From an uncultured Candidatus Saccharibacteria bacterium (GTDB lineage: Bacteria; Patescibacteriota; Dojkabacteria; B142; JAFGMG01): 64,000 nt of DNA. Where the stretch lies: NCBI GenBank assembly GCA_964444125.1, contig CAYUFB010000002.1, positions 9,075-73,074 on the forward strand, read 5' to 3'. Numbering within the stretch: position 1 is the first letter of the stretch; each line of letters begins with the position of its first letter. Shown piece after piece: positions 6,341-62,805 of the stretch. The notes under the pieces were generated by a model that made no database searches, had not been told where the DNA came from, and saw only the letters and a program-made list of their open reading frames with translations. The position numbers and the translations under genes are program-made.

Positions 6341-7570
6341 ATGAAAAACTTATTTATAGGCACTTCTCCAAATATTCAAAAAGACGATATCAAACTGATA
6401 TTTGCAAGCCTTTTTAGACCTTGGGCTTGGAGAGAGGAAGAGGCTGTTTATAAGTTTGAAGAAGAGATTGCAAATTATGTATCAGCAGACAGCAATTCCT
6501 TTGCAATCGCATTCGATTCGGCAAGGACATCTTTTTTCAAATTGCTTGAAGCTTGGGATATTGGGAAAGGAGATGAGGTGTTAGTTCCCAGTTTCACTTG
6601 TGTAGTAATTGTCAATTCTGTGTTACAAGCAGGTGCTACTCCAGTTTATATTGACACAGACCCTGATACTTTCAATATTTCCTTAGATGATTTAAGAGCA
6701 AAGATTAGCAATAAGACTAAGGCAGTTTTAGTTCAACATACTTTTGGTGTGTTTATCGATGTTCAAAAAATTAGAGAGCTTGTCGGAGATGATATAAAAA
6801 TCGTCGAAGACCATGCACACTCTTTGCAGAGAGATGTTTGGGACGACAAAACATCTGATGCATTGGTTCTAACATTTGGTATAGAAAAAACTATGACATC
6901 ACTTCGAGGAGGTATGGCGGTTGTGAGAGATGAGGCTTTGTACAAGAGTTTGAAAGACAAGCAAAGAAACCTCAAGGAGTTTAGCTATAGAAGAATATTT
7001 GTTTGGTTAATAAATCCCCTACTCTGGGCGATTATCACGCCTTTATATTTTGTAGGATTAGGAAAATTTACTATTGGGAGGTTATTTTCTCAAGCTGGGC
7101 ATAAACTTGGCCTTATGGGAAATATGGTTGAAGGATGTGAGTATCGAGGATGTTTCCCAAATTGGATGCCAGCTAAGATGCCAGGAGTATTAGCAGAAAT
7201 TGGTCTAAATCAATTAAGAAAATTAGATAAATTCAATGAACACAGAAGGATAATTGGTCAAATTTATGACGAAGCCTTTGGTAACACTTATTCAAAAACT
7301 GCAAAATATACCCCACTTAGATATCCTCTTTTGGTAGACGAGCCAATAAGAGTTCTTGCGAAATTAAGAAAACATCATGTAATTGCTGGCAATTGGTACA
7401 ACAGGATATTATTTACAGATCCGAAATACTTGGCCGTTCTTGGTTTTGATCCAAAAAGTTGCCCGATTACGATCGAAATTACGCCAAAAGTAATTAACTT
7501 GCCAACTTTTATAAAGGTGACAGAAGAAGATGCAAAAAAAATTGTGGAGATAATTAAAAAATTTGACTAA
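6341..7570 (+). CDS. DegT/DnrJ/EryC1/StrS-family PLP-dependent sugar aminotransferase. Start is probably ATG 6341.
   Basis: GDEVLVPSFTCVVIVNSVLQAGATPVYID, HTFGVFIDVQKIRELV, and a HAHSL context. Confidence 0.8.
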   Translation: MKNLFIGTSPNIQKDDIKLIFASLFRPWAWREEEAVYKFEEEIANYVSADSNSFAIAFDSARTSFFKLLEAWDIGKGDEVLVPSFTCVVIVNSVLQAGATPVYIDTDPDTFNISLDDLRAKISNKTKAVLVQHTFGVFIDVQKIRELVGDDIKIVEDHAHSLQRDVWDDKTSDALVLTFGIEKTMTSLRGGMAVVRDEALYKSLKDKQRNLKEFSYRRIFVWLINPLLWAIITPLYFVGLGKFTIGRLFSQAGHKLGLMGNMVEGCEYRGCFPNWMPAKMPGVLAEIGLNQLRKLDKFNEHRRIIGQIYDEAFGNTYSKTAKYTPLRYPLLVDEPIRVLAKLRKHHVIAGNWYNRILFTDPKYLAVLGFDPKSCPITIEITPKVINLPTFIKVTEEDAKKIVEIIKKFD

Positions 7571-8244: not shown

Positions 8245-10419
8245 TCAAACGAGTTCCAGTCTGGCATATTCTTTGGCTAGTTCTTTGATCCCGGAAGCGA
8301 ATTTGATTCTGATAATCTCATCGTCAATGTATATTACTTCGCCAATGCCAAAATATTCACTTCTTACACGAGAGCCTTGGCATATATCTAGAGTGTCATA
8401 ATAAGACGAGGTCTCCTCCTCTTCTTGTATATAACCAAAACTAGAACTAACTGGCTTGCAGTCTTCAATGTATTCAATTAAACCTTCTGGAATCTCGTCG
8501 ATAAATCTAGAACGAAGCATGTCTTGATAGCTTCCCATATAACTTCTACGGCTTGCGTATGATAAATATAGTTTCTTTTTGGCCCTGGTAAATGCAACAT
8601 ACGCAAGCCTTCTCTCCTCTTCCAGTTCGTCAGGGTCAGCGTAACTTCTTGAATGTGGAAAAATATTCTCTTCAAGACCACATACAAAGACATAGTCAAA
8701 CTCTAAACCTTTGGCAGCATGAATAGTCATCAAAGTCGCCTTGTTGGTTGATGTATCTTTGTCAGCTTCCTTTGCCTGTTCTTCAAGAAGTGAGATGTCT
8801 TCTAAGAACGATTCGATCACATCTGAGGCAATTTCACCTTTGTATTTGACAGAAATATTTACAAATTCCTTGATATTCTCAATCTTGGACAGACTTTCTT
8901 CACTTTTGTCGTTGTACTCTTCAAGAAGATTGCTTCTTTCTAATACTCCTTTTAGAAAATCGACTAAATCCATGGTCTTCAAATTCGCGCGAAGGGATAA
9001 AATCAGGTTTGTGAAGCCTTCGATTTTCTTTAATTGGCTTGCCGATAAAAAGAGTCGAAGAGAATCTATGTCTTTAGCTTCAAGCGCCTCGAAGATTGAT
9101 AATCCTTGTTGGGATGAATACGCAGTCAAATTCGTAAGCAAAATATTACCAATCCCACGTCTTGGTGTATTGATTATCCTTTTTAATGAAACATTATCTT
9201 TGGGATTTGCGATAAGTCTGATATAGGCAAGGATGTCTTTGATTTCTTTCCTATCATAAAATCTGACATTTCCGACAATCTTGTAAGGGATCTGATGACT
9301 GATCATTGCTTCTTCGAGAATTCTTGATTGTGCATTTGTTCTATACAAAATGGCAATATCATTTATATCTGATAATTTCTTGATCATCTGGGCAATATTT
9401 ACTGCTTCAGACCTATCGTCTGGTGCTTCGTATACAGAAATTAGATCACCATTATCATTGTCCGTCCAGAGTTTTTTCTTTTTCTGTCCTTTATTGTAAG
9501 AGATTACCTTGTTTGATGCTTCAAGTATTGTCTTAGTTGATCTGTAATTTTGCTCTAGCTTGATTGTCTTGACCTCGTCATAGTCGTTTTCAAAGTTTAG
9601 TATGTTTTTGATATCTGCTCCTCTCCACTTATAAATACTTTGTGCGTCATCGCCCACAACAAAGATATTCTTCCTTTTTGATGCAAGAAGCTTTGCGAAA
9701 GTGTATTGAGCGTAATTTGTGTCTTGATATTCGTCAATTAGGATATACTTGAATAGTTCCTGATATTTCTCCAATACTTCCGGGGTTTGCTGAAAAAGAA
9801 TAATTGTCTTCATTATCAAATCGTCAAAATCTAATGCTTGATTGGATTCTAGGGTTTTTTGATACTCAGGATAAATCTTGGAAATCATTTCTTGGAATAG
9901 TCCTGTAGCGTACATTTTGTAACCATCTGATGTGATAAGCTCGTTTTTTGCAGATGAAATTGTATTGAGCACTGCTTTTGGCGGGAACTTTTTGATATCG
10001 ACATCCAGCCTTTTTAGGATTTCTCGTATAATAGATTTCTGATCAGTTGGATCGTATATCGTGTAACTTGAGTCAATACCTATGTGATAGCCATCGATTC
10101 TTAAGATTTTGGCACAAATAGCATGAAAAGTTCCCGCCCAGAATAACGTCTTAGACGTTACAATGCCGGCATTCTGACCTGAAGACAATTCTTTTGCTAT
10201 TCTGTTTTTGATTTCTGTAGCGGCCTTGTTGGTAAATGTCACAGCAAGAATCTCTTCTGGCCTGGCAAGTCCAGAGGAGATTATATAGGCAATCCTTTGG
10301 GTTAGAACCTTTGTCTTGCCGCTACCTGCGCCAGCAATAACTAGTACTGGGCCTTGTGTTGTAGTGACCGCTTCAAGCTGTTTTTCGTTTAATTGAGTTT
10401 GAGAATTTGTATTTTGCAT
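8245..10419 (-). CDS. uvrD: ATP-dependent DNA helicase UvrD/PcrA.
   Basis: AGAGSGKTKVLTQRIAYII (motif I), a DEYQDTN-like motif, and VGDDAQSIYKWRGA, as in UvrD/PcrA; 724 aa. Confidence 0.9.
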   Translation of the reverse strand: MQNTNSQTQLNEKQLEAVTTTQGPVLVIAGAGSGKTKVLTQRIAYIISSGLARPEEILAVTFTNKAATEIKNRIAKELSSGQNAGIVTSKTLFWAGTFHAICAKILRIDGYHIGIDSSYTIYDPTDQKSIIREILKRLDVDIKKFPPKAVLNTISSAKNELITSDGYKMYATGLFQEMISKIYPEYQKTLESNQALDFDDLIMKTIILFQQTPEVLEKYQELFKYILIDEYQDTNYAQYTFAKLLASKRKNIFVVGDDAQSIYKWRGADIKNILNFENDYDEVKTIKLEQNYRSTKTILEASNKVISYNKGQKKKKLWTDNDNGDLISVYEAPDDRSEAVNIAQMIKKLSDINDIAILYRTNAQSRILEEAMISHQIPYKIVGNVRFYDRKEIKDILAYIRLIANPKDNVSLKRIINTPRRGIGNILLTNLTAYSSQQGLSIFEALEAKDIDSLRLFLSASQLKKIEGFTNLILSLRANLKTMDLVDFLKGVLERSNLLEEYNDKSEESLSKIENIKEFVNISVKYKGEIASDVIESFLEDISLLEEQAKEADKDTSTNKATLMTIHAAKGLEFDYVFVCGLEENIFPHSRSYADPDELEEERRLAYVAFTRAKKKLYLSYASRRSYMGSYQDMLRSRFIDEIPEGLIEYIEDCKPVSSSFGYIQEEEETSSYYDTLDICQGSRVRSEYFGIGEVIYIDDEIIRIKFASGIKELAKEYARLELV

Positions 10420-10485
10420 TTTGACGGTGATAGTTTAACACGAATTTTATTAAACGTTTTCTTTTATCTCTGCTAAAATGATTTC

Positions 10486-12279
10486 ATGCGAAAAAAATAT
10501 TTTGTAACAATCTTGATCGTTGCTTTCGGATTTCTTTTTTTTACCTCCCAGAAGGCTTTTGCCAAGTTTGAAACTACTATTACAAGAGAATATTATCTTC
10601 AAGACGACTTCTCCGTTATGGTCAAAGAGACAGAAGTGATCAAAAATAATACTTCTAATTTATATGTTCCAGGCGGAGCCAAAAAGGATTTTGAAATATT
10701 GGCAATTGAAACTGGTAATCTGGATAATCCCACAATATTACAAAAGGCACTAGATAGTTTATCAATAAAAGCCAATGGTCAAAACATCTCATATACTTCA
10801 AAAATACAAAAGGATATTGCTTCAATTTCTACAAATTTTCCTGCTGCTGTATCTCCAGGCGGTAGTGTGACATTTGTGATGGAATATAGACATCCTGGAA
10901 TGCTTGAGACAAATGGTGCTCTAAAGGATTTTTTCGTCAATGGGTTTGCTGTAAATAGCACTTTTGAGGATGCTTCAAACTCAACAAACTATGAAACCTT
11001 GGTGTTTGTTCCAATTAATTATCCTGATATAAATTTTATTAACCTGTCTTATCAAGAAAGGCAATCTGGAAATTACAAAGTCTACTCTTTTTCAAAAGAA
11101 GATATGCTTGGCAATTATCTTTGGATCCAGTTTGGAAGAACTCAATATTACAAATTCGAGATAATTCAAAACATCAAAAAGTCAGAAAGATTAAATACAG
11201 GTAATTTGAACCGCTATGAGATCGTAATTCCAAGAAATATTATGACTGCTGATATTGATCAAAAAATATACTATGAAGCTATCACGCCTGAACCAGAGTG
11301 GATAAAACAAGATAGTCAAGGAAATTTGATAGCAAGTTTTAAATTAAAAAGTAATTTTGATGGCAATATCACCATAAAAGGATATGCTTCGATAAACAAG
11401 GTGAATGATTTGGAAATAGCCAATTTCGGTAATTTGTCCGAGATAGGTGGCGAAATGAATAGTTATTTGGCAAAAGCTGATTATTGGGAAGTAGATCATC
11501 CAACAATTCAAAATCAGGCAAAGGTTTTGAAGTCTTCAAACACCGATATTGCTAAACTTGTGCTTGATACCTATAATTTCGTCATCGACAAGATAGATTA
11601 TTCAGATGTCAAAAGATTTGGATTAAATGAGAGACAGGGCGCAGTAGCAACTTTGCAAGGAGGGGCGGCTGTTTGTATGGAATATTCTGATTTATTTTTA
11701 ACATTGATGAGAGCGCAAGGTGTGCCTGCTAGAGCTGCTTTTGGTTATGGTTATGACCCAAAGTCTTCGTCAGATACACAAGAGAGCCACCAATGGGTAG
11801 AAATTTATGCCCCAAAAATAAAGCAATGGGTGGCTGTAGATGTAACCTGGGGTGAAAATGGGCCAGCGTTGATTGGTGGAGATATGAATCATTTCTACAC
11901 ACACGTAGCTTCAATTTCTCCAAATGAGCCACCTGCAATAGTTAGTGTTGGCTATGGAATACTTGATCTGGAAGTTGCAAACTACAATATCGAGGTAATT
12001 GAAAGCCTCCCTGAAGGGCAATATACCCTCCAAGAGGATTTACTTGTCAGATACAAATTTCAAGATGAATCTTTATCAGATAATTTATCAGGACTGTTAA
12101 GATCAAAAGTCGAAGCTACTTATTCAAATCTACTTAATCGCCAAAAGCTAAGTCTTGATCAGATACTTGCCCTGTTTTTTGTAGCCATGCTCGTTTTGAT
12201 CGCAGCTTTGATATTGTTTGCTACAATCCAGAAGATTAGAAAAAAAGTTTCTAAATCTGAGTTAGAACAATTGCAATAA
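10486..12279 (+). CDS. Transglutaminase-like cysteine protease-fold surface protein, with a signal peptide and a C-terminal TM anchor.
   Basis: GGAAVCMEYSDLFLTLMRAQGVPARAAFGYGYD with catalytic Cys, HQWVEIY (His), and a VDVTWGE-like Asp context. Confidence 0.8.
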   Translation: MRKKYFVTILIVAFGFLFFTSQKAFAKFETTITREYYLQDDFSVMVKETEVIKNNTSNLYVPGGAKKDFEILAIETGNLDNPTILQKALDSLSIKANGQNISYTSKIQKDIASISTNFPAAVSPGGSVTFVMEYRHPGMLETNGALKDFFVNGFAVNSTFEDASNSTNYETLVFVPINYPDINFINLSYQERQSGNYKVYSFSKEDMLGNYLWIQFGRTQYYKFEIIQNIKKSERLNTGNLNRYEIVIPRNIMTADIDQKIYYEAITPEPEWIKQDSQGNLIASFKLKSNFDGNITIKGYASINKVNDLEIANFGNLSEIGGEMNSYLAKADYWEVDHPTIQNQAKVLKSSNTDIAKLVLDTYNFVIDKIDYSDVKRFGLNERQGAVATLQGGAAVCMEYSDLFLTLMRAQGVPARAAFGYGYDPKSSSDTQESHQWVEIYAPKIKQWVAVDVTWGENGPALIGGDMNHFYTHVASISPNEPPAIVSVGYGILDLEVANYNIEVIESLPEGQYTLQEDLLVRYKFQDESLSDNLSGLLRSKVEATYSNLLNRQKLSLDQILALFFVAMLVLIAALILFATIQKIRKKVSKSELEQLQ

Positions 12280-45588: not shown

Positions 45589-46704
45589 TTGAAAGTTCTT
45601 TGGAAAACAACACAATCTAATAAACCAATAGTTAGGCACAGGCCAAAACGTTTCTCATTTAGGCCGAATATCAAGCCAAGGATCAAAATTGACAAAAGAA
45701 GCGCGGGTAGATTTAGAAGAAAGCTTACAATTTTTACTCCACTTTTGCGTATTATCAAGTCCAATTTTCAATATGTTTTGATTGTTTTTTCTTTGCTTAT
45801 TATCGGGTTGTTTTTTTATGGGATCTTTCAGACAAATGTATTTGATGTCAAAAAGATTAGAATAGAGGGGGTTGAAAATGTGGATAGGGAAAGATTGGCT
45901 GAAGTTGTCGGTAAGTATAAGGATAGAAACATCTATTCAATAAATCTATCGGATATTGAGGACGAGGTTTTGAATTCCTCTGTTTATATAAAAAATGTCT
46001 ATGCTAGAAAACAATTGCCTTCCACAATTATCATTGAAATTAAAGAAAGGTATCCAACTCTTGTTATTCTAAATTTTGATGGTGTGTATCTTATCGATGC
46101 AGAAAACATTGTAACTTCAAACCCTATAAATCAATCGATAGATTTTAGTGAGGACGAATGGTACGTCTATCATACAAATTCACTTGATAATTTGATTATC
46201 AAAAATAGGATAATGGCTAATTTGAAAGAGGGAGATCCGGAATTTGACGAAGAGTCGTTTGATTATGAAAATTATGATGTTACCATCAAGCAACGGATCA
46301 AAAACGAAATAAAGCAGGAGATGGATCAGGCTATTGCTGCGCATTTCTCATCTCTTGAACAGGTAGTCAATGAAAGTGAGTATGCAGGACTTCCAAGAGT
46401 CTATTTTTATGATGGTGGTAGCTACAATCAAGAAGATAGGTTAGTGCTTGATCAGATCACTGATGTAGAAAAAGTGGTCAAATATTTTGAGAGGCTTGAT
46501 AGGTATTCAATCACAAAAATTGCCTGGGTGACCAAATTTAGCTTGAAAGTAGAAACCTTAGAAGGTAAGATATTTATGTTTGGAGATAATAGAGATATTG
46601 ATAAGCAGATAGACGACCTTGATGTGATACTTGTCGAACTGTCCTTAAGTGGCAAAGATTTCACAACAATCAATCTCCAAAGTGAAATCATTGGGGTTAA
46701 ATAA
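45589..46704 (+). CDS. ftsQ: Cell division protein FtsQ/DivIB (POTRA domain).
   Basis: Basic N-terminus, single TM helix, the POTRA segment VKKIRIEGVENV...NIYSINL, and synteny with ftsA-ftsZ. Confidence 0.72.
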   Translation: MKVLWKTTQSNKPIVRHRPKRFSFRPNIKPRIKIDKRSAGRFRRKLTIFTPLLRIIKSNFQYVLIVFSLLIIGLFFYGIFQTNVFDVKKIRIEGVENVDRERLAEVVGKYKDRNIYSINLSDIEDEVLNSSVYIKNVYARKQLPSTIIIEIKERYPTLVILNFDGVYLIDAENIVTSNPINQSIDFSEDEWYVYHTNSLDNLIIKNRIMANLKEGDPEFDEESFDYENYDVTIKQRIKNEIKQEMDQAIAAHFSSLEQVVNESEYAGLPRVYFYDGGSYNQEDRLVLDQITDVEKVVKYFERLDRYSITKIAWVTKFSLKVETLEGKIFMFGDNRDIDKQIDDLDVILVELSLSGKDFTTINLQSEIIGVK

Positions 46705-46721
46705 TATACAATTTTTTTATT

Positions 46722-47663
46722 TTGAGTATGAAAAAATATTTGTGTTTATTGTTGATATTGATAGTGGTTGGGTTCGGATCATTTGCAAATATGGTTTTGG
46801 CACAGGAGGCGTCTGATATAATACGGCTAACTTGTACTGAAATCTATGGGAAAAACTTAGAAAGACTTGAATGTAGCGATGATTCAATCTGTAATAGTGA
46901 AAAAAGTTACTACTTGGATAATCATGATGGCAAGTGCGAGATCGCTGCTGGTGATTGTAGGCCAGGCTAACTTGTATGTAAAAATGCTGAATCTATACAA
47001 GGTTTTTTCGAATATTGTTGTGATACAAATCCATCATCTCTGTTTGATCCTAATAACACGAATATTCCTATTGAGGATAGGGTATCTTGTAATGATGATA
47101 AATTGAAAAAGTCAATTAGTGCTGAAAGTAGTCTTGATCAGGGGATGAAGGTAAATAATTGTAGGTCATTGTCTAGTGCAGAAGATGTAAACAATATTAC
47201 GAAATGCGATTTTGAACATTTTTGCTCAATTGATAATTCTCCATATTGTTGTGATTATACCCCACCAGGCACGCAAGTAGTAGATTCAGTCTCAGAAGAC
47301 TCATTTAAGTGGTGTAAGGATATGGATGGAGAAGAATTGCAGAGATGTTCGGAATGTATAGGAACAAGATCAAATCCAACAGGGGCGATATGGACGGAGC
47401 TTGGATGTATTGACCCATCTCCAGCAGGGATCATAACGAGGATATTCTAGATAGGTATAGGAATTATGGGAGGAGTGATAATAATCAGGTTGATACAGAT
47501 TTCGTTGTTATACTTGAAAGAAGATGCGCAGAGTATAGAGGAGGCAAGAGATATGCTAACAAGTTTGATAATGGGATTAATATTATTGGTAGGAGGAGTA
47601 GTGTTATTACAATTTGTGGGAGTAAATATCCTAGGACTTCCTGAGGGTTATCTTGGAGGTTAA
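46722..47663 (+). pseudogene. Decayed paralog of the hairpin-protein family. One reading frame is broken by an in-frame TAA (46968-46970) and an in-frame TAG (47448-47450).
   Basis: Signal peptide, Cys-rich ectodomain, the conserved NPTGAIWTELGCIDPSPAGIITRIF segment and the two-TM hairpin are all in one frame. TAG 47448 corresponds to CAG in the intact paralog at 59148. Confidence 0.6.
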
Positions 47664-47861
47664 ATATTGATAATTGTCAACAATTCCAAATCGGTTCTTT
47701 AAATATTTTCATAATTGCTCTAATATTTATTTTGTTTTATTAAGTACAACAGGCAAATTTTGAGTGAAGAATAATTTAATACAGATAGTTGATTGTTGTT
47801 ATTAATTAAATTATACTACTTACAAGCAAAAAGTTTTTTTATAAGAATTTTTTAATCAATT

Positions 47862-49142
47862 ATGGCAAACAGAATAGTTACAGCGATAGATATTGGCTCT
47901 ACAAAGATTTGCACTACAATTGCTTCAATAGAAGAAGACAGGCAACCATCAGTAATTGGCGTTGCAAGTTATCCAAGTAATGGTATGAAGAAAGGCGTGG
48001 TGGTCAATATAGACGAAGCAATCAATGCAATAGCTTCATCTTTGGAGGCAGCAGAGAGAATGGCAGGGCTTACAGTTTCTTCAGTGTATATTTCCATAAA
48101 CGGCAAACATATTACAAGTACCAATAACAAAGGGGTTGTTGCTGTTGCGCAAGATGAGATAGTTACTGATGATGTGTTTAGGGCTATTGAGAGTGCAAGA
48201 ACGGTATCAATACCTCCTTCAAGAGAGATATTGCACGTTATCCCTAGAGAATTTATTGTTGATGCGCAAGGGGGTATCAAAGATCCAGTAGGGATGACAG
48301 GTACCAGGCTTGAGGTTGATGCTCATATAGTATCTGCAACTAGCACCTCTTTGCATAACTTGATTAAATGTGTGCAACAATTAGGTCTTAAGGTTGAAGA
48401 TGTTGTTTTTAGCGGATGGGCAGCTGCAACAAGCGTATTAACTGCAACAGAAAAAGAACTTGGAGTTACATTGCTTGATATCGGTGGTGGTACAACTTCA
48501 ATTACAACTTTTGTCGAGGATGCTATTACATATAGTGGATGCATTCCTTTTGGAGGTACTAACGTAACTAGTGATTTGGCTATTGGACTTCGGGTATCAT
48601 TAGAAGATGCAGAGAGAATCAAGTTGAACACAGAAGAACTGATGAGAAGTTCTGCAAGAAGAAGAACTGAAGATAAAGAAAAAGATGAAGAAAAATCCAA
48701 AAAGCAAAGCGATATTATCGATATTAGTTCACTAGAAGTTGAAGGAATGAAAACTATTTCAAGAAAAATGTTTGAAGATATTATTGAGGCTAGATTAAGT
48801 GAAATATTTGATCTTATTATTGATCAAGTAGAACAATCTGATAATGAGATCAAATTACCAGCAGGTATTGTTCTTACTGGTGGAGCAGCTTTGATCCCAG
48901 GCATTACAACTATTGCAAAGAAAGTTTTTGGGGTACCTGCAAGAGTGGGCTATCCGAAAGGACTTGAAGGCTTGATTGATGAAATCAATAGCCCTGCTTA
49001 TGCAGTAAGTCAAGGTCTGATTCTTTATGGATCACAGGATGAATCAGGTGGCAGAAACTTAGGTATCTCAGGAAGTGTTGGAGACAAGGGTGATGGATTT
49101 GTATCCAAGATTGGAAGTTTCTTTAAAAATTTATTGCCATAA
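47862..49142 (+). CDS. ftsA: Cell division protein FtsA.
   Basis: Actin-like ATPase with AIDIGSTKICT and DIGGGTT motifs; 426 aa. Confidence 0.9.
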   Translation: MANRIVTAIDIGSTKICTTIASIEEDRQPSVIGVASYPSNGMKKGVVVNIDEAINAIASSLEAAERMAGLTVSSVYISINGKHITSTNNKGVVAVAQDEIVTDDVFRAIESARTVSIPPSREILHVIPREFIVDAQGGIKDPVGMTGTRLEVDAHIVSATSTSLHNLIKCVQQLGLKVEDVVFSGWAAATSVLTATEKELGVTLLDIGGGTTSITTFVEDAITYSGCIPFGGTNVTSDLAIGLRVSLEDAERIKLNTEELMRSSARRRTEDKEKDEEKSKKQSDIIDISSLEVEGMKTISRKMFEDIIEARLSEIFDLIIDQVEQSDNEIKLPAGIVLTGGAALIPGITTIAKKVFGVPARVGYPKGLEGLIDEINSPAYAVSQGLILYGSQDESGGRNLGISGSVGDKGDGFVSKIGSFFKNLLP

Positions 49143-50427: not shown

Positions 50428-51510
50428 ATGAGCACTGCTGAATCAACTCCTGATCCAAGTTTGGCTATTCAAGAAGCGCCGGGATTGGATATTGTAGCGC
50501 CTCCAGAGATACCAGTATCTTCAGTAAATCCTCGAATTGAGACGCATTCAGCAACAACTCAGATTGGATCTCGGACTGCAATAAAATATATTGATAGATC
50601 AGATATGCCAGCTGCAGAAGCAGAAAGAGCCCTAAAGGTAAATTTGGCGCTAACAAAACACGCTGTGATTTCTGATCAAGATATTGCCAATGCACTTGAT
50701 AAAGAAATGGTAAAAAAAGAGTTGATGAGGCTTGACCGCGGTGCGACAATAATTGATCGAATAAAAGAGAGTGTAACAATGCCAGATTTCAAAGATAAGC
50801 TCAAAAAGCTCGCTTGGAATGGTTTGAAATATGGCTATTGGGGATTTTTTGCATATGGAGTACTTACAGGTACAAGCCCTATTGGAGTAGTTAAAGATAT
50901 TGTCAGTATACCTGGTAGAATAGGGGATTTGGTTAATACGGGTGCAGACAACTTAATTAGCTTTCTTGGTTTGGAATCTAAGCCTGCGGGAGGTCCCCAG
51001 AATACATCAGGCGACATACTTCAGTCAAAGATTCCATCTGGAAGACTATTTGATACGCCGGTATTTGATGATGATGGAGAAATGACTAATAAAGGTGGGA
51101 CATTTTTCAATCTGTTTAAGCCACTTTTGGGAAAGGATCTAGCAACTTCATTGACAAAAACAGTAGGTACACCTTTTGTCGGAATATTTGGTTCTCTTGC
51201 ACAAAATACGAAGTATCCTGTTGAAGGGAAGTGGGGACCTTTTTTGGCTTATCCAGCGGTTTATTATGGAGGTAAGAAGCTTGGTCTATGGAATGAATTA
51301 TATACAAGACTTAAAGGAGATAGTACAGGTAACTTAAATCAAATGAAGAGACAAGAAATTGAAGCATTGAAAGAAAAAGCAAGAAATGAACTACTCTCAG
51401 GAAACTGGGAAGGTTATTCAGAGATTAGACTTGCCATTGATAATATAGGTGAAAGATATAAAGGAATTGAAAATCAATTAATTCGCCAACGTAGGGCTTT
51501 AGTGGCATAA
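50428..51510 (+). CDS. Hypothetical protein downstream of ftsZ.
   Basis: 360-aa ORF, 18 nt after the ftsZ stop. Confidence 0.5.
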   Translation: MSTAESTPDPSLAIQEAPGLDIVAPPEIPVSSVNPRIETHSATTQIGSRTAIKYIDRSDMPAAEAERALKVNLALTKHAVISDQDIANALDKEMVKKELMRLDRGATIIDRIKESVTMPDFKDKLKKLAWNGLKYGYWGFFAYGVLTGTSPIGVVKDIVSIPGRIGDLVNTGADNLISFLGLESKPAGGPQNTSGDILQSKIPSGRLFDTPVFDDDGEMTNKGGTFFNLFKPLLGKDLATSLTKTVGTPFVGIFGSLAQNTKYPVEGKWGPFLAYPAVYYGGKKLGLWNELYTRLKGDSTGNLNQMKRQEIEALKEKARNELLSGNWEGYSEIRLAIDNIGERYKGIENQLIRQRRALVA

Positions 51511-51517: not shown

Positions 51518-51982
51518 ATGTTAAATCTAGTTGTATTAGAACAATTAATCAAATTTAGTATCCCTGATAAATCATTGCAGGATAGGTATATCAAGGGGAT
51601 CTCTGCTGCAATTCAGGATCTTTTTTTCAATTTGTTGAGTATCTTTCTAATTGGGTCTGTCAAAGACAGATTAGCGCTAGAGGGGTTTATTGACCTAGTC
51701 AATAAGTTAGAAGAAGATTTTGATCCAACAGATATGGAAAGAACCAGAGATTGGTTAGAAACAAATATAGATCTAGATACGGATGCTTTTATGGATGAAT
51801 ATATAAGTAGGGTAGATAAAATGCAGCTAGACCTTATCAAAATCTTCTCAAAGAATATAACAGAAGAGCAAAAAATAGAATTAATTAATATAATTGATAA
51901 ACAATTAATAGAATTAGAAAAGAACAGAGAAGAAGTTGATACGATGAAAGAAGCCCTAGAGGTTTTAAGATTTAATCAATAG
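51518..51982 (+). CDS. Hypothetical acidic protein.
   Basis: 154-aa ORF, co-directional with ftsZ. Confidence 0.45.
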   Translation: MLNLVVLEQLIKFSIPDKSLQDRYIKGISAAIQDLFFNLLSIFLIGSVKDRLALEGFIDLVNKLEEDFDPTDMERTRDWLETNIDLDTDAFMDEYISRVDKMQLDLIKIFSKNITEEQKIELINIIDKQLIELEKNREEVDTMKEALEVLRFNQ

Positions 51983-55286: not shown

Positions 55287-55670
55287 TTGAATCAAAGCTA
55301 TGTTAGCATGAGAAAAGGAAAACTTATGAACATGATTTTGGATTTTTTTAAAAAATATATTTTTGGATTTTTTGCGTGGTGGTATTTAGTCAAAGGCCGT
55401 GAGGTGGTTGATTATTTTTCTCGAACGATTCTGAAATATTTCGTTAGATTGAATATTGGGCCAATGCTTGGGAACCTCTTTGCTCCAATGTTCCAAGACA
55501 AATCACTTACGGGTAGGTTTATTGCATTTCCAATAAGATTGATTTGGGGTCTTGGGGGATTGATTATTGAATTAATAATAATCGCTATTGGTTTAGTCTT
55601 TCTGCATATATATTTCCTTTTGCCAATAGCAGTCATTTATCAGATAGTTACATTTGTAGTGCTTAAATGA
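55287..55670 (+). CDS. Small polytopic membrane protein, first gene of the operon. The start may be ATG 55326.
   Basis: Hydrophobic helices; its stop overlaps the Clp-like start by 4 nt (ATGA). Confidence 0.5.
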   Translation: MNQSYVSMRKGKLMNMILDFFKKYIFGFFAWWYLVKGREVVDYFSRTILKYFVRLNIGPMLGNLFAPMFQDKSLTGRFIAFPIRLIWGLGGLIIELIIIAIGLVFLHIYFLLPIAVIYQIVTFVVLK

Positions 55671-58243
55671 AGATAGTTAACAAAAAATTAAAAATTGGTA
55701 AATACAAGGAAATGGAGGTTTTTGTTGATTGGGCATACCTTCAAAAGGGTAGAGGACTTAGAAAAAAAGAAGATCTACTGCAACTTGCTTTTGGGCGGTT
55801 CTTGTTTGTTATTGCTGTTATAGCAATGACAATTATAACTATTGCCCAAATATCACTTGGTAATTTCATTGTTTTTGAGGCAATCAAAAACGACTCACAA
55901 ATTAGTTTGGTCTTTTGGCTTGTTTTAGCTTTGTTTCTTTATGCTTCGTATCTACTTCGTGATAGGTCCAAGTTTTTTGATACTCTGGATCTGAAGGCAT
56001 TGACTAAATTGGCAAAAGATATTGAAGATAATAATAGCCCAAAAGAAGTTGAAATTCTGGATTTCGTCGATTATGACGTATTAAATACCTTAGATAAATT
56101 GCTTGAGAATAATCAGGAAAATATTTATGAGAATTTAATGATTGATTTACTTGAATTACAAGATGTTGGTCAGTTAATCAACAGGCTTGGGATTCAAAAA
56201 GAAATATTGCTGAACGAAATTGGGCAATTAGATATGACAATAGAAGGTGATAAGGTTTATCAAATTAATAAACTGCTATATCAATCATTTGTCATGGGGC
56301 TTGATTATAAATTTAGTTTTATTGGTGAATGGATAATTTTCTTGAAATTAGCTCTCGATGAATATAACCAGGTTTTTATGAAATTAGGAATTACAAAAGG
56401 AACTTTATTATCTGTTCTGGAGTGGACAAAGGCGCAGGCAATGGGTAATAGATATAGGAAATTATGGAAATATAAAGCATCTCTAAAACCAAGAAGCACT
56501 GTCAATCGAAGCTATACATCAGCACACACACCTACTTTAAATAAATATTCTAGAGATTTGACCAGGGAAGTAATTGATGGAGAATTTAGTTATGCGTTAA
56601 GTAGAGAGACTGAAATTGCTGATGTGATTAGGTATTTGAAGCCAGAAAAAGGTGCTGTATTGTTACTTGGTGAAGCTGGTGTAGGAAAGACCACAATCCT
56701 AAAAAGTATCGCAGTGAAGATGGTGGTAGAGGATGTCCCTTCAAACCTGAAAGATAAGAGACTTGTGGAATTTGATTTTCACCGTGCCGTGACGCAAGCA
56801 CTAGATACCTCAAAGCTTAGAGCTTTAATTGAAGATATTATAGTTGAGGTTGGCAAATCCAAAAATGTTGTATTGGTTATTGACGACTTGGATGAATTGA
56901 TTGGATTGAAAGATGATATTTCAGATGAAATTGTCTCAACTTTGCATAAAGCGTTGTCTAATAATTCAATTAGTCTTGTTGCTACTTCATCAAATGAGGG
57001 GTATATAAAATCTATCAAGCCAAATACGCAGCTAGCAAATATTTTTGATGTTGTGCGTATTGATGAGCCATCACCAGAAATTGCTCTACAGATAATATTT
57101 GACGAGAGATCTAAGCTTGAGGATATGTACAATATCAAAATTCAATTTGATGCCTTGAAATCTGCTATTGAGCTTACTGATAGATATGACAAAACAAGGG
57201 TCTTCCCATTTAAGGCAATTGACACATTAGAAGATGCTTGTGTCTTGGCTCTTGAAGAGGGACTAGGTTTTGTTTCAGCTTCTCAAGTTGAGGCTGTGGT
57301 TAGCAAAGATGCAGGCATCAAGGTCGGGAGACTTGATGAGACTGAGGGGCAGAAACTACTGCAACTTGAAGATAGGATGAAACGCAGAGTGATCGGGCAG
57401 GATAACGCTATAAAAGCAGTAGTTTCTGCCCTGAAAAGAGCTAGGGCAGGTCTAGTATCAAAAAATAAACCTCTTTCGTCATTCCTGTTTTTTGGCCCAA
57501 CCGGTGTGGGCAAAACTGAAGTGGCGAGAACTTTGGCTGCTGTTTATTTTGGTGATGAGAAATTGATTACTAGAATTGATATGTCTGAATTTCAAGAAGA
57601 GAAAAATGTCTCAAGGTTGATTGGTTCGTCTGATGAAGATGGTTTTGTGGGAGGGCAATTGACTGAAAAGGTGAGAGAGCATCCGTTTTCTCTAATTCTC
57701 CTGGATGAGATTGAGAAAGCAAACCCCAAAGTCTTAGATTTATTCTTGCAGGTTTTAGATGAAGGTCATATCAAGGATGGTCTAGGAAGGGTCGTGGATT
57801 TCAAAAATACTATTATTATTGCGACGTCAAATATTGGATCTAAATCTATTGCTGATAGTTTCTCAAAAGAAATTTCATATGAAAAAACTGAAAGAATGGC
57901 GAAGGAAGAATTGAAAAAGTATTTAAGGATTGAATTTATTAACAGATTTGATAAAGTGATAATGTTTAAACCATTATCCAAAATTGAGATAGAAAAAATT
58001 GCTGGATTGATGATGAACCAGGTCGTAGATAGATTGAAAGAGCAAGGGATAGGTTTGAAATTTGAAGCTCAATTATTAAGCCAGCTTGCACAAAAAGGTT
58101 ATAGTCTAATGTATGGAGCAAGAGAAATGCGAAGGGTTATTCAAGATGAGGTCGAGACGAGAATTGCTGATATGATAGTGGCAGGCAAGCTTAAATCAGG
58201 GGATACTTTAACTATTAAGTCCTTGGAGGAATTTGAAGTATGA
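55667..58243 (+). CDS. Membrane-anchored ClpC/ClpB-like double AAA+ ATPase: two N-terminal TM helices, Clp_N-like repeats, then D1 and D2.
   Basis: D1 LLLGEAGVGKTTI with VVLVIDDLDE. D2 FLFFGPTGVGKTE, IDMSEF, ILLDEIEKANPKV, sensor GAREMRRVIQ, and PTLNKYSRDLT. Hydrophobic helices lie at about residues 45-95. Confidence 0.8.
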   Translation: MKIVNKKLKIGKYKEMEVFVDWAYLQKGRGLRKKEDLLQLAFGRFLFVIAVIAMTIITIAQISLGNFIVFEAIKNDSQISLVFWLVLALFLYASYLLRDRSKFFDTLDLKALTKLAKDIEDNNSPKEVEILDFVDYDVLNTLDKLLENNQENIYENLMIDLLELQDVGQLINRLGIQKEILLNEIGQLDMTIEGDKVYQINKLLYQSFVMGLDYKFSFIGEWIIFLKLALDEYNQVFMKLGITKGTLLSVLEWTKAQAMGNRYRKLWKYKASLKPRSTVNRSYTSAHTPTLNKYSRDLTREVIDGEFSYALSRETEIADVIRYLKPEKGAVLLLGEAGVGKTTILKSIAVKMVVEDVPSNLKDKRLVEFDFHRAVTQALDTSKLRALIEDIIVEVGKSKNVVLVIDDLDELIGLKDDISDEIVSTLHKALSNNSISLVATSSNEGYIKSIKPNTQLANIFDVVRIDEPSPEIALQIIFDERSKLEDMYNIKIQFDALKSAIELTDRYDKTRVFPFKAIDTLEDACVLALEEGLGFVSASQVEAVVSKDAGIKVGRLDETEGQKLLQLEDRMKRRVIGQDNAIKAVVSALKRARAGLVSKNKPLSSFLFFGPTGVGKTEVARTLAAVYFGDEKLITRIDMSEFQEEKNVSRLIGSSDEDGFVGGQLTEKVREHPFSLILLDEIEKANPKVLDLFLQVLDEGHIKDGLGRVVDFKNTIIIATSNIGSKSIADSFSKEISYEKTERMAKEELKKYLRIEFINRFDKVIMFKPLSKIEIEKIAGLMMNQVVDRLKEQGIGLKFEAQLLSQLAQKGYSLMYGAREMRRVIQDEVETRIADMIVAGKLKSGDTLTIKSLEEFEV

Positions 58244-59358
58244 GAAAGGTTTTTATTTTTGTTGCATTGCTTTTACTCATATCCTTCACTGGATTAATAA
58301 AGATTAAGGCTCAAAACAGCATATTTAACAGGAATTCTACACATGCTTCTTATGCGACATATGTTTTTGATTGTGCGGGAAGCGAGATTGAATTAGCGGT
58401 GCCAAATGTTGTGCCTTCTTCTTATGATAGTTTTGAATATTATGTTGAAAGGAGTGCAGGAGATGAAATAGTTGTCTTAATATATAAGCAATTAAATAGT
58501 TCTCCTCAGTTGGATGCGATAAGATCTTTTTCGACTTCTGGTACCGGAACTATTCCGTTAGACATATTGGATTACCAAACCGGTAGTATTCAATATAGAG
58601 TTGGTATGGCTATGAATGAGGTCTGTACTCTTCAAGGTAGCACGGATACAACCGTTTCTATTACTATTACAGACAATATAAAAACCACTTCGGACTGTCC
58701 TAATGGTGAATTTCTCCAGATTTCTAATGGAAGAGTTGAAAATAGTAGGGTAATTGTTGATATAAATGCTTGTGTTGATAGTTCGTCAAGGTATTCATTT
58801 ATAGATTTAACAGATAATCCTACCTCAATCATGGATGAAATAGGCACTGGAGAAATTGCAAGAGAATTGACAATAAGGAAATACGATAGTCCTATACGAG
58901 TAATTGTTGAAGGATATATAAATGGTTCTATGATTAAAAGATATGCAATTGACTTAAACGTTACAACAGAAATAATTGAATCGGTCTCGGAAGACTCATT
59001 TAAAGGATGTGGAGAGATGGGGGAGGATGAGAAGGCAGCGTGTATAAGATGTGTAGGTACTAAATCAAATCCAACAGGGGCGATATGGACGGAGCTTGGA
59101 TGTATTGACCCATCTCCAGCAGGGATCATAACGAGGATATTCCAGATAGGTATAGGAATTATGGGAGGAGTGATAATAATAAGGTTGATACAGATATCAT
59201 TATTGTATTTAAAAGATGATGCACAGAGTTTGGAAGAAGCGAGAGATATGTTGACAAGTTTGGTAATGGGATTGATATTGTTGGTAGGAGGGGTAGTGTT
59301 GTTACAATTTGTAGGAGTCAATATCTTGGGCCTACCTGAAGGATATCTTGGAGGTTAA
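58240..59358 (+). CDS. Array member A (372 aa): signal peptide, ectodomain, conserved Cys-containing juxtamembrane segment, and a C-terminal two-helix hairpin.
   Basis: The start overlaps the Clp-like stop (ATGA). C-terminus is IFQIGIGIMGGVIIIRLIQISLLYL-KDDAQSLEEARDMLTS-LVMGLILLVGGVVLLQFVGV. Confidence 0.6.
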   Translation: MRKVFIFVALLLLISFTGLIKIKAQNSIFNRNSTHASYATYVFDCAGSEIELAVPNVVPSSYDSFEYYVERSAGDEIVVLIYKQLNSSPQLDAIRSFSTSGTGTIPLDILDYQTGSIQYRVGMAMNEVCTLQGSTDTTVSITITDNIKTTSDCPNGEFLQISNGRVENSRVIVDINACVDSSSRYSFIDLTDNPTSIMDEIGTGEIARELTIRKYDSPIRVIVEGYINGSMIKRYAIDLNVTTEIIESVSEDSFKGCGEMGEDEKAACIRCVGTKSNPTGAIWTELGCIDPSPAGIITRIFQIGIGIMGGVIIIRLIQISLLYLKDDAQSLEEARDMLTSLVMGLILLVGGVVLLQFVGVNILGLPEGYLGG

Positions 59359-59421
59359 TGCTATTAGCTTGACCCCGAGTACTTGTAACTGTAGACTGAT
59401 AATTAAATATTAAATTGATCA

Positions 59422-59790
59422 ATGATGTCATTTCAAAGATTGGTTGTTTTCATGCTAATTTCATTAAGTTATCTAGCTCCTATGGCTGTTATGGCAGAGA
59501 CATTGGACACTTCAATAGGTACTATCCAAAGTCCATTGGGAGATACTGATATGTTTGGGCTCATTGAGAGACTTGTAGGATATGTTAGGCCAATTATTGC
59601 AATCACATTCCTTTTTGTAATTATTTATGGAGGTTATACCAGGATGACCGCAGCAGGGGATCCGGAAAAAGAGAAGAAGAGCAATTCAATTCTTACAGCA
59701 GGGGTAATTGGTTTTGCTATTATTGTCCTCGCTCCTGCGGTAGTTAGATTAGTTAGCTCACTTATAGGAATACAAGGAGATGTTGTCTAA
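59422..59790 (+). CDS. Array member B: a bare 122-aa VirB2/TrbC-like pilin-type subunit (signal peptide plus two-helix hairpin).
   Basis: Signal peptide ...APMAVMA; TM1 IIAITFLFVIIYGGY, loop TRMTAAGDPEKEKKSN, TM2 AGVIGFAIIVLAPAVV. Confidence 0.6.
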   Translation: MMSFQRLVVFMLISLSYLAPMAVMAETLDTSIGTIQSPLGDTDMFGLIERLVGYVRPIIAITFLFVIIYGGYTRMTAAGDPEKEKKSNSILTAGVIGFAIIVLAPAVVRLVSSLIGIQGDVV

Positions 59791-60535
59791 ATATACAAAA
59801 ATATTAAGCTTTATCACCGTACTAGTTGCGGGTTATTTTTTGTTTGTTACTGGCGTTCAGGCACAGAATTTTTCTGAATGTATTAGGGATAAAACAGTTA
59901 ATCAAACTGGTTATGTCTGCAGTTTGTGTGGTGATTCTGCCATAGATGCCGAAAGGGAATCAAATTGTGATAAACGTGTAATTGAAGGATATAAATGGGA
60001 TGCAAGTACCTGTAGTTGTATAAACACAAAGAGTAGTTGTTCTGGGATTTCTGAAAATGTTCAAAAGAGTCGCAAAGTTCAATGTTTTGCCAATGGGAAT
60101 ATGTGGAATTATTCAAGTTGTGAATGTATAAATAGTCAAACAGCAATGCCAATTGTTATGTCGCCTACCGTTGATAATGGATTAGGTAATGGATTGGACG
60201 ATACTACTAATAGTATCATCGGTATTTTTGATCGGGTCTTTTTCAAGACTAATTTCGATGGATCTGTCGACAACGTCTCTGAACTTATCAGAATGGCGTT
60301 TATTATTATTTTCATGATTATTGCTATTGTGGCATTTTTCTTAGGTATTTATGGAATGTATCTCTATAGTACAGCATTTGATGATGACGAGAAGGTTTCC
60401 AAAGCACAGAAGATTTTCAAAGATGCTTTGATTGGACTATTTATTGCTATTGCAGGTATTGTGCTTGTGCAGGTAGTCGCGATATTTTTGGGAGTAGATA
60501 GTGCTGATCTTTTTACTTTTAATGTAAGCAATTAA
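59780..60535 (+). CDS. Array member C (251 aa): signal peptide, Cys-rich ectodomain (12 Cys), and a C-terminal two-helix hairpin.
   Basis: AAGGAG ribosome-binding site inside the end of B. Hairpin IIFMIIAIVAFFLGIYGMYLYS-TAFDDDEKVSKAQKIFKD-ALIGLFIAIAGIVLVQVVAIF. Confidence 0.6.
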   Translation: MLSKYTKILSFITVLVAGYFLFVTGVQAQNFSECIRDKTVNQTGYVCSLCGDSAIDAERESNCDKRVIEGYKWDASTCSCINTKSSCSGISENVQKSRKVQCFANGNMWNYSSCECINSQTAMPIVMSPTVDNGLGNGLDDTTNSIIGIFDRVFFKTNFDGSVDNVSELIRMAFIIIFMIIAIVAFFLGIYGMYLYSTAFDDDEKVSKAQKIFKDALIGLFIAIAGIVLVQVVAIFLGVDSADLFTFNVSN

Positions 60536-60545
60536 AATAGAATTT

Positions 60546-61127
60546 ATGAAGAAAATTTTTTTCATTTTCGCAATAATTTTTATTTCTCTTGGCTCGTTGG
60601 GGCAGGTATTTGCACAGACTCAAGAGGAGGTTCAAGAAAATGGGGTTAATATTCAAGTTGGAGAGAATACCTTAAATCTAGATATCTTTGACCCAACGGG
60701 AGGTTGGGGGAATGTAGGAATTCTTGCACTATTGGGTTTGATTGGACAATTAATTTTTGGTTTACTTGTAGTCGTTTGGATATTTATAGCTTTGCTATCT
60801 GGTTTGAAAATAGTAAGAAGTCAGGGCAAAGCAGAAGATATTGAATCTGGCACTGGAGCTATAGGCAATATGCTTAAAGGTATTACGTTTGGTCTCCTGT
60901 TTTTTGTAGCAGTGTCTGTTATTGGTATGATCACGGGTGCCGGCACTGTCTTTGAATGGTCTGATAATTTGCAGGAATGCTCATGTGAAGCATCAGTTGA
61001 AGGAACTCCTTGTTATACATATAAATTCCAGGCTGAGGCCAGTGTGGAAGAAGAAACTGTTTGGGCATGTGAGAGAGATCAGCATGGCTCAAAATTCGGC
61101 AAAGGATGGTTTTCTAGTTTGGATTGA
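60546..61127 (+). CDS. Array member D (193 aa): signal peptide, two-helix hairpin, and a C-terminal Cys-containing domain.
   Basis: GILALLGLIGQLIFGLLVVVWIFIALL-SGLKIVRSQGKAEDIESGTGAIGNMLKG-ITFGLLFFVAVSVIGMI. Confidence 0.6.
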   Translation: MKKIFFIFAIIFISLGSLGQVFAQTQEEVQENGVNIQVGENTLNLDIFDPTGGWGNVGILALLGLIGQLIFGLLVVVWIFIALLSGLKIVRSQGKAEDIESGTGAIGNMLKGITFGLLFFVAVSVIGMITGAGTVFEWSDNLQECSCEASVEGTPCYTYKFQAEASVEEETVWACERDQHGSKFGKGWFSSLD

Positions 61128-61179
61128 CTTTTGTTTGTTAAATCGTTATCCTGATTTTATATATTAATTTAAATTCAAA

Positions 61180-61731
61180 ATGAAAAAGTACCTTACAAAA
61201 GGAGCTTTGGTGTTAGTAGTTTCGTATTCGTTCGCTAATGTGGCATATGCACAAAGTCTTCTACCTGCATTTATGGATGAGTTTTTAAATGATTGGAATA
61301 ATACAAATTCTGTCGATAAGATTAGTGGATTTATCAGGCTTGCTTTGACACTTGCATTTGGTGTTGTAATCCTTGCTGCTGTAGCATATTCTATTATGGC
61401 TGCTATCAAATACATCAAGAGTCAAGGAGATGCTGGTCAAGTGGAAGAAGCGAACAAAGCTATCAAAGCAATATTTCAAGGAGTTGTAGCTATGTTTGTA
61501 GGTATTATTGGGGTTGTTTTGGTATTCTTCATATTCAATGTCGCTCTTCCAGATCCAAGTATACCTTCTATTTGTGTGAAATGTCCAGAAAGTAATACTT
61601 GTAGGGTTTGTAGTGAAGGTAAACAAGAAAAGGGTGGAACGGATTATGTTTTGTCGGGTAATCCAAAATCGCCAGCAACAGAAGATGAGTGTAATCCAAA
61701 AACAGATACTATAGATTGTGAAGATTATTAA
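61180..61731 (+). CDS. Array member E (183 aa): signal peptide, two-helix hairpin, and a C-terminal Cys-rich domain (10 Cys).
   Basis: LALTLAFGVVILAAVAYSIMAAI-KYIKSQGDAGQVEEANKAIKAI-FQGVVAMFVGIIGVVLVFFIF, then CVKCPESNTCRVCSEG. Confidence 0.6.
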   Translation: MKKYLTKGALVLVVSYSFANVAYAQSLLPAFMDEFLNDWNNTNSVDKISGFIRLALTLAFGVVILAAVAYSIMAAIKYIKSQGDAGQVEEANKAIKAIFQGVVAMFVGIIGVVLVFFIFNVALPDPSIPSICVKCPESNTCRVCSEGKQEKGGTDYVLSGNPKSPATEDECNPKTDTIDCEDY

Positions 61732-61761
61732 TTGTTTTGCTGGGTTAATTAAAGATAATAG

Positions 61762-62805
61762 GTGAAAGCAATTTTATCGGTTCGTTTTATAATCATATTT
61801 TTGTTAATTGCCTTCTTGCTGGTAGGTTCGGTTTTTGCTCAATTTGGCTCTGGCGATGAACCTGCCAGGCTTCGTGACCTTGAGCCTCTTTTGGTGCAAC
61901 TGATTTATGTGATATGGGCACTTGGTGGGATAATATTTACAGCTGCGTTGATGTTTATAGGGTTTCTCTACATGACAAGTGCTGGAGATCCTCAAAAACA
62001 AGAGGCTTTGAAGAAACGCGCGACAAATTGGCTTTTTGGACTGATTCTGTTTTTCGCGGGATACCCATTGGTGTTGACTGCGTACAATGTTTTAGATATA
62101 GGTCAATCAAATCCGGATTGTTATAAATCAGTTTCAACTCCTGGGTTTCATTTTTTCTTCCCCGATGTATGTACTGATCCACTAGAGGGAACAGAGTTTC
62201 TTGTTGGTCAAACGGTTCAGAAAGCAAATTTAACTGAAGAAGAATTTATACAGAAACTTATAGATGGAAAAAGATGTGTCTTAAATGATAAATATGCTCC
62301 CGTAGAAAGCTATATATTTTCAAAAGATGATTATAAATTGTATAAGTACAAAATGGAAAGCAATGGGAATTGCTTGAAATATGATATTGTAGTACGTAAT
62401 TCAGTAGATATGAGGAATAGAGAGTATTTATATGTTTTCAGAGATGGTAAAATATTTGAGGAAGATGGGACATTCTATGTTTACGGAGGCAACTGTAGTA
62501 ATGATGGTATAAAAAACACGGGCAGGCAAGATATGTGTTGTTTGGGTGATCAGGGAAAACATTTCGTTGTTCCTTCCAGGACAGCTTCTGAAAATGATGA
62601 GCAGGGAGGATCCAAACGTCAGTATGTCAGAATGCTTGATGGGACAATAACATATTTTTGGTATGATGCAAAAGGAAATGATATTGGTGCGTGTGATTGT
62701 GAAAGGGATGGAAATACAACTGGGAGTGGTACTACTTGTAAATCTTTTTCAGGTGTAAGAGTATCTTTAGATTTATCTAATATCAGTGGGGTCCAAGTCC
62801 CATAG
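61762..62805 (+). CDS. Array member F (347 aa): signal peptide, two-helix hairpin with a TSAGDPQKQE loop, and a large C-terminal Cys-rich ectodomain.
   Basis: LIYVIWALGGIIFTAALMFIGFLYM-TSAGDPQKQEALKKRATNW-LFGLILFFAGYPLVLTAY. At least 12 Cys lie downstream. Confidence 0.6.
   Translation: MKAILSVRFIIIFLLIAFLLVGSVFAQFGSGDEPARLRDLEPLLVQLIYVIWALGGIIFTAALMFIGFLYMTSAGDPQKQEALKKRATNWLFGLILFFAGYPLVLTAYNVLDIGQSNPDCYKSVSTPGFHFFFPDVCTDPLEGTEFLVGQTVQKANLTEEEFIQKLIDGKRCVLNDKYAPVESYIFSKDDYKLYKYKMESNGNCLKYDIVVRNSVDMRNREYLYVFRDGKIFEEDGTFYVYGGNCSNDGIKNTGRQDMCCLGDQGKHFVVPSRTASENDEQGGSKRQYVRMLDGTITYFWYDAKGNDIGACDCERDGNTTGSGTTCKSFSGVRVSLDLSNISGVQVP

Follow-up and report, generated by a model that had tools for sequence, protein, structure and literature searches.

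The stretch of DNA analysed in this study (64 kb, in the following referred to as the window) falls within a 96-kb contig of JGI (3300021843, Ga0226657_10000294). Between ftsQ and ftsA it carries a single continuous reading frame of about 313–314 codons on the forward strand, which contains exactly two internal stop codons (Table 1). The translated frame consists of a signal peptide, a Cys-rich ectodomain, a conserved juxtamembrane block and a two-helix hairpin, and this order as well as the coordinates of both stops agree with what an earlier note on this DNA had described. The start codon is likely ATG 46728. Two YCCD motifs are present in the ectodomain, the conserved block has the sequence SNPTGAIWTELGCIDPSPAG, and the product ends with the C-terminal tail LGLPEGYLGG. 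The TAA is located one residue ahead of a conserved hydrophobic-[YFV]-Cys motif. Read separately, the interrupted frame yields sub-ORFs of 82 aa (TTG 46722), 115 aa (TTG 47103; 101 aa if read from ATG 47145) and 65 aa (ATG 47466). Inspection of these sub-ORFs for ribosome-binding sites, which had been proposed as a check, was uninformative, because a Shine-Dalgarno-like motif of at least 4 nt was present at the starts of only 14 of 54 genes in the window. Most of the starts are preceded by A/T-rich sequence, and it follows that translation initiation is largely Shine-Dalgarno-independent.

Table 1. Features of the interrupted ORF, its surroundings and the pilin array (positions in the window).
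Feature	Position	Strand	Basis or remark
ftsQ (POTRA_1)	45589..46704	+	Pfam PF08478, E = 2e-12; stop codon 17-23 nt before interrupted ORF
Interrupted ORF, ectodomain + VirB2-like hairpin protein	46722..47663	+	Single frame, two stops; intact homologs P0002, P0004, P0003
Signal peptide MKKYLCLLLILIVVGFGSFANMVLAQEA	46728..46811	+	Translation; N-terminal pattern common to all homologs
12-nt direct repeat GGCTAACTTGTA, first copy	46825..46836	+	Exact match
12-nt direct repeat GGCTAACTTGTA, second copy, spans TAA	46965..46976	+	Different reading frame from first copy
In-frame TAA in Cys-rich ectodomain	46968..46970	+	Translation; in JGI, Logan and NCBI contigs
C-terminal module: juxtamembrane Cys block, TM1 (~47430-47516), loop, TM2 (~47556-47639), PEGYLGG tail	47275..47663	+	DNA homology to gene A
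114-nt tract identical to gene A except the T of TAG	47370..47483	+	Read as recent gene-conversion tract
In-frame TAG replacing invariant Gln codon	47448..47450	+	Gene A has CAG at 59143-59145
ftsA	47862..49142	+	Pfam families; promoter-like site ahead at 47789-47817 (promoter scan)
ClpB-like double AAA+ gene	55667..58243	+	Overlaps start of gene A by 4 nt
Gene A (P0001), intact array-head paralog, probable partner in gene conversion	58240..59358	+	Different, non-Cys-rich ectodomain
Five further VirB2-like pilin genes of the array	59422..62805	+	PF18895 matches at 59422, 59780 and 61762; gene order same in relatives

Intact homologs of the interrupted ORF exist with lengths from 279 to 335 aa. 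P0002 (318 aa) showed 39% identity over 99% of the query, and like P0004 (319 aa) and P0003 (335 aa) it possesses the same architecture together with an ectodomain of the Cys-rich type. Every intact homolog has a sense codon at the sites of both stops, and the Gln in the alignment column of the TAG is invariant in all of them. The TAG had been interpreted as a single C-to-T nonsense change, and this is borne out by the CAG of gene A and by the invariant Gln; the CAG was indeed found in the aligned position of gene A, only its coordinate, given as 59148, had to be corrected. No frameshift was detected, and the two stops are the only damage to the frame. In the ectodomain, the reading frame and all Cys positions common to P0002, P0003 and P0004 are retained.

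The sole DNA homology of this region elsewhere in the window is that to gene A. Positions 47275–47663 aligned with 58970–59358 of gene A over 390 nt without gaps and with 84% identity (blastn), and the homology ends exactly at the stop codon. A single difference to gene A occurs within the 114-nt tract, in comparison to 29 differences in the next 177 nt (Fisher p = 4.6e-6). Because the equivalent block shows many synonymous differences between the contigs L006 and L041 of relatives, the identity of the 114 nt is not due to constraint at the nucleotide level, but most probably to a recent conversion, and positions 47370–47483 appear to be the tract of this event. The TAG most probably arose after the latest conversion from gene A.

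For the part behind the TAG, to which the selection figures are confined because the nearest homologs of the ectodomain are only 33–44% identical, the comparison of 70 codons with gene A revealed 22 synonymous and three conservative differences (E/D, I/L and I/V), corresponding to a dS of 0.9 and a dN of 0.022. Since synonymous changes prevail to this extent, selection at the protein level is likely to have acted on this part during almost the whole of its divergence from gene A; neutral drift over a large part of the divergence would be expected to give tens of non-synonymous changes. The designation as a decayed copy in the earlier note does not fit an otherwise intact frame with strong purifying selection on the part behind both stops, and the copy appears to be a young pseudogene rather than a decayed one.

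The 12-nt direct repeat is exact and does not extend beyond 12 nt. It is real and spans the TAA, as had been claimed, whereas the positions 46823 and 46963 given for it were incorrect. When the ORF was simulated with a Markov model, 7.9% of the cases contained some 12-mer repeat, and in 0.2% an exact one covered a given 3-nt site. As a covering repeat is this rare in the simulations, the TAA may have been created by a short templated copy of the 12-nt sequence. A second exact repeat of 13 nt (ATATTGTTGTGAT) at 47012 and 47243 encodes the duplicated YCCD motif. Furthermore, the 3' end of ftsQ (46676–46703) and the 3' end of the pseudogene (47639–47666), which are 963 nt apart, share 71% similarity over 28 nt including nine identical bases (GGTTAAATA) across both stop codons. 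This similarity could be a microhomology trace left by the original insertion. A footprint of a mobile element was also considered and rejected, since no convincing flanking repeats were found and the 28-nt similarity, being absent in the relatives L037 and L041, is probably due to chance.

The same position is occupied in these two relatives. In L037, an abhydrolase gene (minus strand), rpsO and ftsQ (376 aa) are followed after 46 nt by an intact family member of 279 aa, and in L041 a Mur ligase gene, an abhydrolase gene (minus strand), rpsO and ftsQ (391 aa) are followed after 5 nt by the intact P0003; both contigs end 39–91 nt past the gene and before ftsA, so that they show the position directly after ftsQ and nothing beyond. 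The FtsQ proteins of these relatives are 43% and 46% identical to that of the window. As two relatives diverged to this degree share the position with intact copies, it appears to be an old, conserved second locus of the family in a sub-lineage and not a recent insertion. The earlier note had asked whether the copy is intact elsewhere, which these two genes answer, and had regarded the locus as an unusual insertion or a relic of the mobility of the array, a view which they do not support. Separate conservation of the sub-ORFs in relatives, which was named there as evidence against an interrupted gene, was not seen, as L037 and L041 each carry one intact ORF.

In the more distant relatives L014, L015 and L016 (FtsQ of L014 25% identical to that of the window), the order rpsO-ftsQ-ftsA is kept with a gap of only about 145 nt between ftsQ and ftsA and no family member in between. 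The closest FtsA proteins in species-representative genomes showed 86, 73, 71 and 68% identity and belong to MAGs labelled as Ca. Saccharibacteria or Ca. Dojkabacteria; the contig of the closest one (L013, 86%) starts 169 nt upstream of ftsA and gives nothing on the ftsQ-ftsA interval. A metagenome scan with the family alignment yielded only four loci. Most often, members of the family stand at the array head and immediately follow the ClpB-like AAA+ gene (P0002, P0004, P0015, P0018 and gene A in the window). Additional members were observed elsewhere in the same neighbourhood, namely P0006 (L042, 1548–2642) after rpoD and P0005 (L043, 6001–7365) between an AI-2E permease gene and the ClpB-like gene. 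From these other positions in other lineages it follows that the second copy was probably moved or re-created more than once.

Two C-terminal anchors from one genome appear to resemble each other more than anchors from different genomes do. The pseudogene product shares 86% of the amino acids with gene A in its last 125 residues and at most 60% with any other genome. P0002, encoded at an array head (L006, 5001–5957), and the ftsQ-linked P0003 (L041, 6001–7008) are identical in all of their last 96 residues, where these two proteins originate from one sample and from different contigs and are assumed to belong to the same genome. About 59 of these 96 codons differ synonymously, and dS is saturated. 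Such identity represents an unusually extreme constraint for a module which differs by about 40% between genomes. In a third case, from a single metagenome, the final 123 nt of the L037 gene recur unchanged as the first 123 nt of L040, which runs on into an array. Recent conversion would explain the pair of the window and the L037/L040 pair, whereas the P0002/P0003 pair would need very strong selection that keeps both anchors alike. At one end of this concerted evolution are DNA tracts without a difference, at the other 96 of 96 residues conserved despite synonymous saturation; the pattern suggests a common partner that both proteins have to fit.

The whole proteins, i.e. the repaired pseudogene product and the product of gene A, gave no Pfam match at E ≤ 0.01. 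When the C-terminal modules were isolated, six of seven family members matched PF18895 weakly (best E = 6.9e-5). A profile of this module aligned with the PF18895-positive pilins of the same arrays over 81 columns with 93% probability (E = 3.3e-7; hhalign). The translation also exhibits the features of a T4SS_pilin protein, which are an N-terminal signal peptide and two hydrophobic helices separated by a short polar loop. The hairpin is, at the level of remote homology, most probably a divergent VirB2-like T4SS_pilin (PF18895) domain. In an AF2 model of P0002, helices were predicted at residues 239–270 and 274–304 with a pLDDT of about 75; the rest of the model, which was calculated from an alignment of six sequences, is poor, and with an overall pLDDT of 46 it is too poor for a fold search. 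A search of 1.84 billion representatives with the family profile identified 5146 proteins at E ≤ 1e-3 and 1788 at E ≤ 1e-10. Since most of the matches have 250–730 aa and match through their C-terminal ~120 residues only, proteins with a variable ectodomain and a VirB2-like anchor form a large family. The ectodomains are hypervariable across the family.

All six genes of the array (58240–62805) encode proteins with signal peptide and hairpin, three of which match PF18895 directly, and this is in accordance with the designation of the ftsQ-linked gene as a seventh copy. The ClpB-like gene directly upstream of the array-head gene recurs in relatives (L006, L007, L046 and L047), which suggests that this ATPase is functionally linked to the pilin array. 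The genes virB4, virB6 and VirD4 of the T4SS core were not detected among the 30 large ORFs of the window scanned with Pfam; they may be located outside of the 64 kb. In a relative from Rifle groundwater (L007), toxin-antitoxin genes are inserted in two places, those of BrnT/CopG inside the pilin array (6013–6568) and DUF6922/AbiEii-like ones at its end (9754–10615).

Besides ftsQ, ftsA and the ClpB-like gene, the neighbourhood in the window comprises a sortase gene and rpoD. Directly after ftsZ, two ORFs of 360 and 154 aa (50428–51510 and 51518–51982) gave no Pfam match; they are followed by the sortase gene on the opposite strand, and in the relative L043 they are absent between ftsZ and the sortase gene. 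The genes dnaA and dnaN are located at the start of the window (141–2840), and therefore the division block and the pilin array are about 45–60 kb away from the probable replication origin. According to a recent preprint, T4SS genes are close to dnaA in some CPR bacteria.

Taken together, these observations indicate that the locus is probably a recently inactivated pseudogene of a conserved ftsQ-linked paralog, whose anchor evolves in concert with the array-head gene. The product of the parent gene would have been secreted and anchored in the membrane; behind the signal peptide it would have carried a variable ectodomain rich in Cys, then a conserved juxtamembrane block containing Cys and finally a two-helix hairpin similar to VirB2/T4SS_pilin. 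In a sub-lineage of the Patescibacteria (CPR), two copies of the family are presumably maintained, of which one heads the pilin array after the ClpB-like AAA+ gene and the other one lies directly downstream of ftsQ, with which it is probably co-transcribed. Gene conversion and very strong purifying selection would keep the C-terminal anchors alike in each genome, and the ectodomains would diverge freely. In the population represented by the window, the ftsQ-linked copy probably gained two independent nonsense mutations: the TAA in the ectodomain, possibly by copying the 12-nt sequence from 140 nt upstream, and the transition from CAG to TAG, which in the assumed order of mutations took place after the latest conversion from gene A. 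Loss of function of the ftsQ-linked copy is the probable consequence. The presence of two stops without other damage could also fit a selected inactivation or some tolerated expression.

Whether the stops are genuine was judged from several assemblies. In a cluster look-up, the exact 80-aa product ending at the TAA was found on six contigs and the exact 101-aa product ending at the TAG on five contigs from JGI, NCBI and Logan, in agreement with the two in-frame stops reported before; contigs sharing both stops may represent one population sampled repeatedly, and this recurrence does not equal fixation across strains. That one or both stops are artefacts of assembly or sequencing, for example due to mis-phasing inside the repeat shared with gene A, is hardly credible. 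The TAG does lie inside the 114-nt two-copy repeat, and Logan k=31 contigs of SRR8165485, which carry the TAA, break at 47398 and 47456, the expected edges of a collapsed two-copy repeat. However, the TAA is located in unique sequence, and since the T of the TAG is only 38 nt away from the first downstream pseudogene-specific base (47486), it should be phased by k-mers of at least 41 and by single reads. The 950-nt NCBI contig L045 (JASEYN010220011.1; GCA_030154545.1), from which the protein P0014 (186 aa) is derived, carries a CAG instead of the TAG. Its 5' part corresponds to positions 46916–47447 of the pseudogene with one mismatch and includes the TAA, its 3' part is 100% identical to the 3' end of gene A and the next pilin gene (59065–59560), and the junction lies inside the 114-nt identical tract. 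P0014 was considered as an intact allele and rejected, as the contig joins parts of two genes with the TAA still upstream; as the contig matches gene A at 100% everywhere beyond the C, this base has to be assigned to gene A. Most likely L045 is an assembly chimera through the shared repeat; less likely it represents the junction of a deletion between two direct repeats, by which ftsA through the ClpB-like gene would have been removed. An alternative genetic code was rejected as well, because all three stop codons serve as regular ends of the window's 55 long ORFs (34 TAA, 11 TGA and 10 TAG). Since, in addition, no tRNA of any kind is present in the window and no Rfam family matched at 46500–48000, the organism fits the standard bacterial code and the stops can be regarded as genuine. 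These same results make it very unlikely that the full-length protein is still produced by stop-codon readthrough or suppression, or that the copy is a phase-variable ON/OFF gene, as had been suggested previously. The undamaged frame and the purifying selection behind the stops would be expected in this case, and a conversion from gene A could turn the TAG, given its location inside the tract, back into CAG. On the other hand, genes of this genome regularly terminate with TAA and TAG, the regions mentioned yielded neither a suppressor tRNA nor an RNA element, and the in-frame stops are not conserved in the homologs, all of which have sense codons at both sites and the invariant Gln at the site of the TAG. 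Moreover, no homopolymer, simple repeat, invertible element or inverted-repeat switch occurs at either stop, and since the window contains no homologous donor for the TAA, this stop could not be restored by conversion.

Gene conversion between both loci, the hypervariable ectodomains and a proposed role of the VirB2 paralog arrays of CPR in host-range or antigenic variation (bioRxiv 10.1101/2025.01.22.634366) would be in line with a copy which is kept as a silent DNA reservoir and exchanges sequence with the expressed array-head gene in order to vary the surface protein. This is nevertheless quite unlikely. The homology to gene A is one-sided and comprises the conserved 3' module only, no shared 5' segment brackets the ectodomain, and conversion homogenises the conserved part here instead of shuffling the variable one; furthermore, the copy possesses its own start codon and signal peptide, and the gene is intact in relatives. 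A gene split into working small products, i.e. a secreted Cys-rich peptide of 52 aa and a leaderless mini-pilin of 65 aa, is highly improbable. The 80-aa ORF retains the signal peptide, yet its product has five Cys in the mature part and the likely partner Cys is located just past the TAA. Likewise, the 65-aa ORF retains most of the hairpin, is under purifying selection and starts with an ATG with AGGA 7 nt upstream, but it begins in the middle of TM1 without a signal peptide, AGGA and ATG are identical in gene A and give no evidence of a new start, and the selection signature is older than the TAG. Relatives L037 and L041, in contrast, carry one continuous gene. A further explanation, which we regard as unlikely, is a two-locus system with different ectodomains on a shared, co-evolving VirB2-like anchor, of which one is expressed with the division genes and the ftsQ-linked one was switched off after the array-head gene had gained a new ectodomain. 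If this were true, the match between the anchors would be maintained by conversion together with exceptionally strong selection, the window would capture a single stage of a turnover cycle, and a conversion from gene A could in principle undo the TAG.

Read as a recently inactivated pseudogene, the locus represents no new mechanism but a known kind of gene in a copy that was disabled only lately, and it matters little by itself. The by-products are useful for work on the cell surface of CPR/Patescibacteria. Within a family of thousands of representatives with a VirB2-like hairpin and a hypervariable ectodomain, one sub-lineage apparently has a conserved second locus directly after ftsQ in the division-gene block. 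An annotation should treat the locus as a single interrupted gene and not as three small ORFs, and the shared repeat has to be considered as a source of chimeric contigs, of which the 186-aa 'protein' is an example.

Arrays of VirB2-like pilins are known in CPR, where 441 arrays of 2–11 pilin genes with low identity between paralogs were described (bioRxiv 10.1101/2025.01.22.634366). The genes of the window resemble these VirB2-like/T4SS_pilin arrays (PF18895, PF04956) in the combination of signal peptide and two-helix hairpin and in the tandem array of six highly divergent paralogs. In contrast to the known pilins, the protein studied here possesses a variable ectodomain of 200 aa and a conserved Cys block before the hairpin, it scores only at the level of remote homology to clear members of PF18895, and its gene lies outside of the array directly after ftsQ, with no virB4 among the ORFs scanned in the window. 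Like ordinary young bacterial pseudogenes, the copy has intact homologs and point nonsense changes without other damage, and selection predates the inactivation; unlike these, one of its stops lies inside a probable recent gene-conversion tract common to a functional paralog.

In Neisseria, a non-expressed pilin-related copy (pilS) and the expressed copy (pilE) exchange sequence by gene conversion. The likeness to this system consists in pilin-related copies that exchange sequence by conversion. A pilS-type cassette has no start and no 5' coding part of its own and shares conserved segments with the expression locus on either side of the variable region. These features are absent here, as the copy possesses an ATG and a signal peptide and is homologous to gene A only at 47275–47663. 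In contrast to pilE/pilS, the homology is one-sided, and the exchanged segment is the conserved anchor and not the variable part of the protein.
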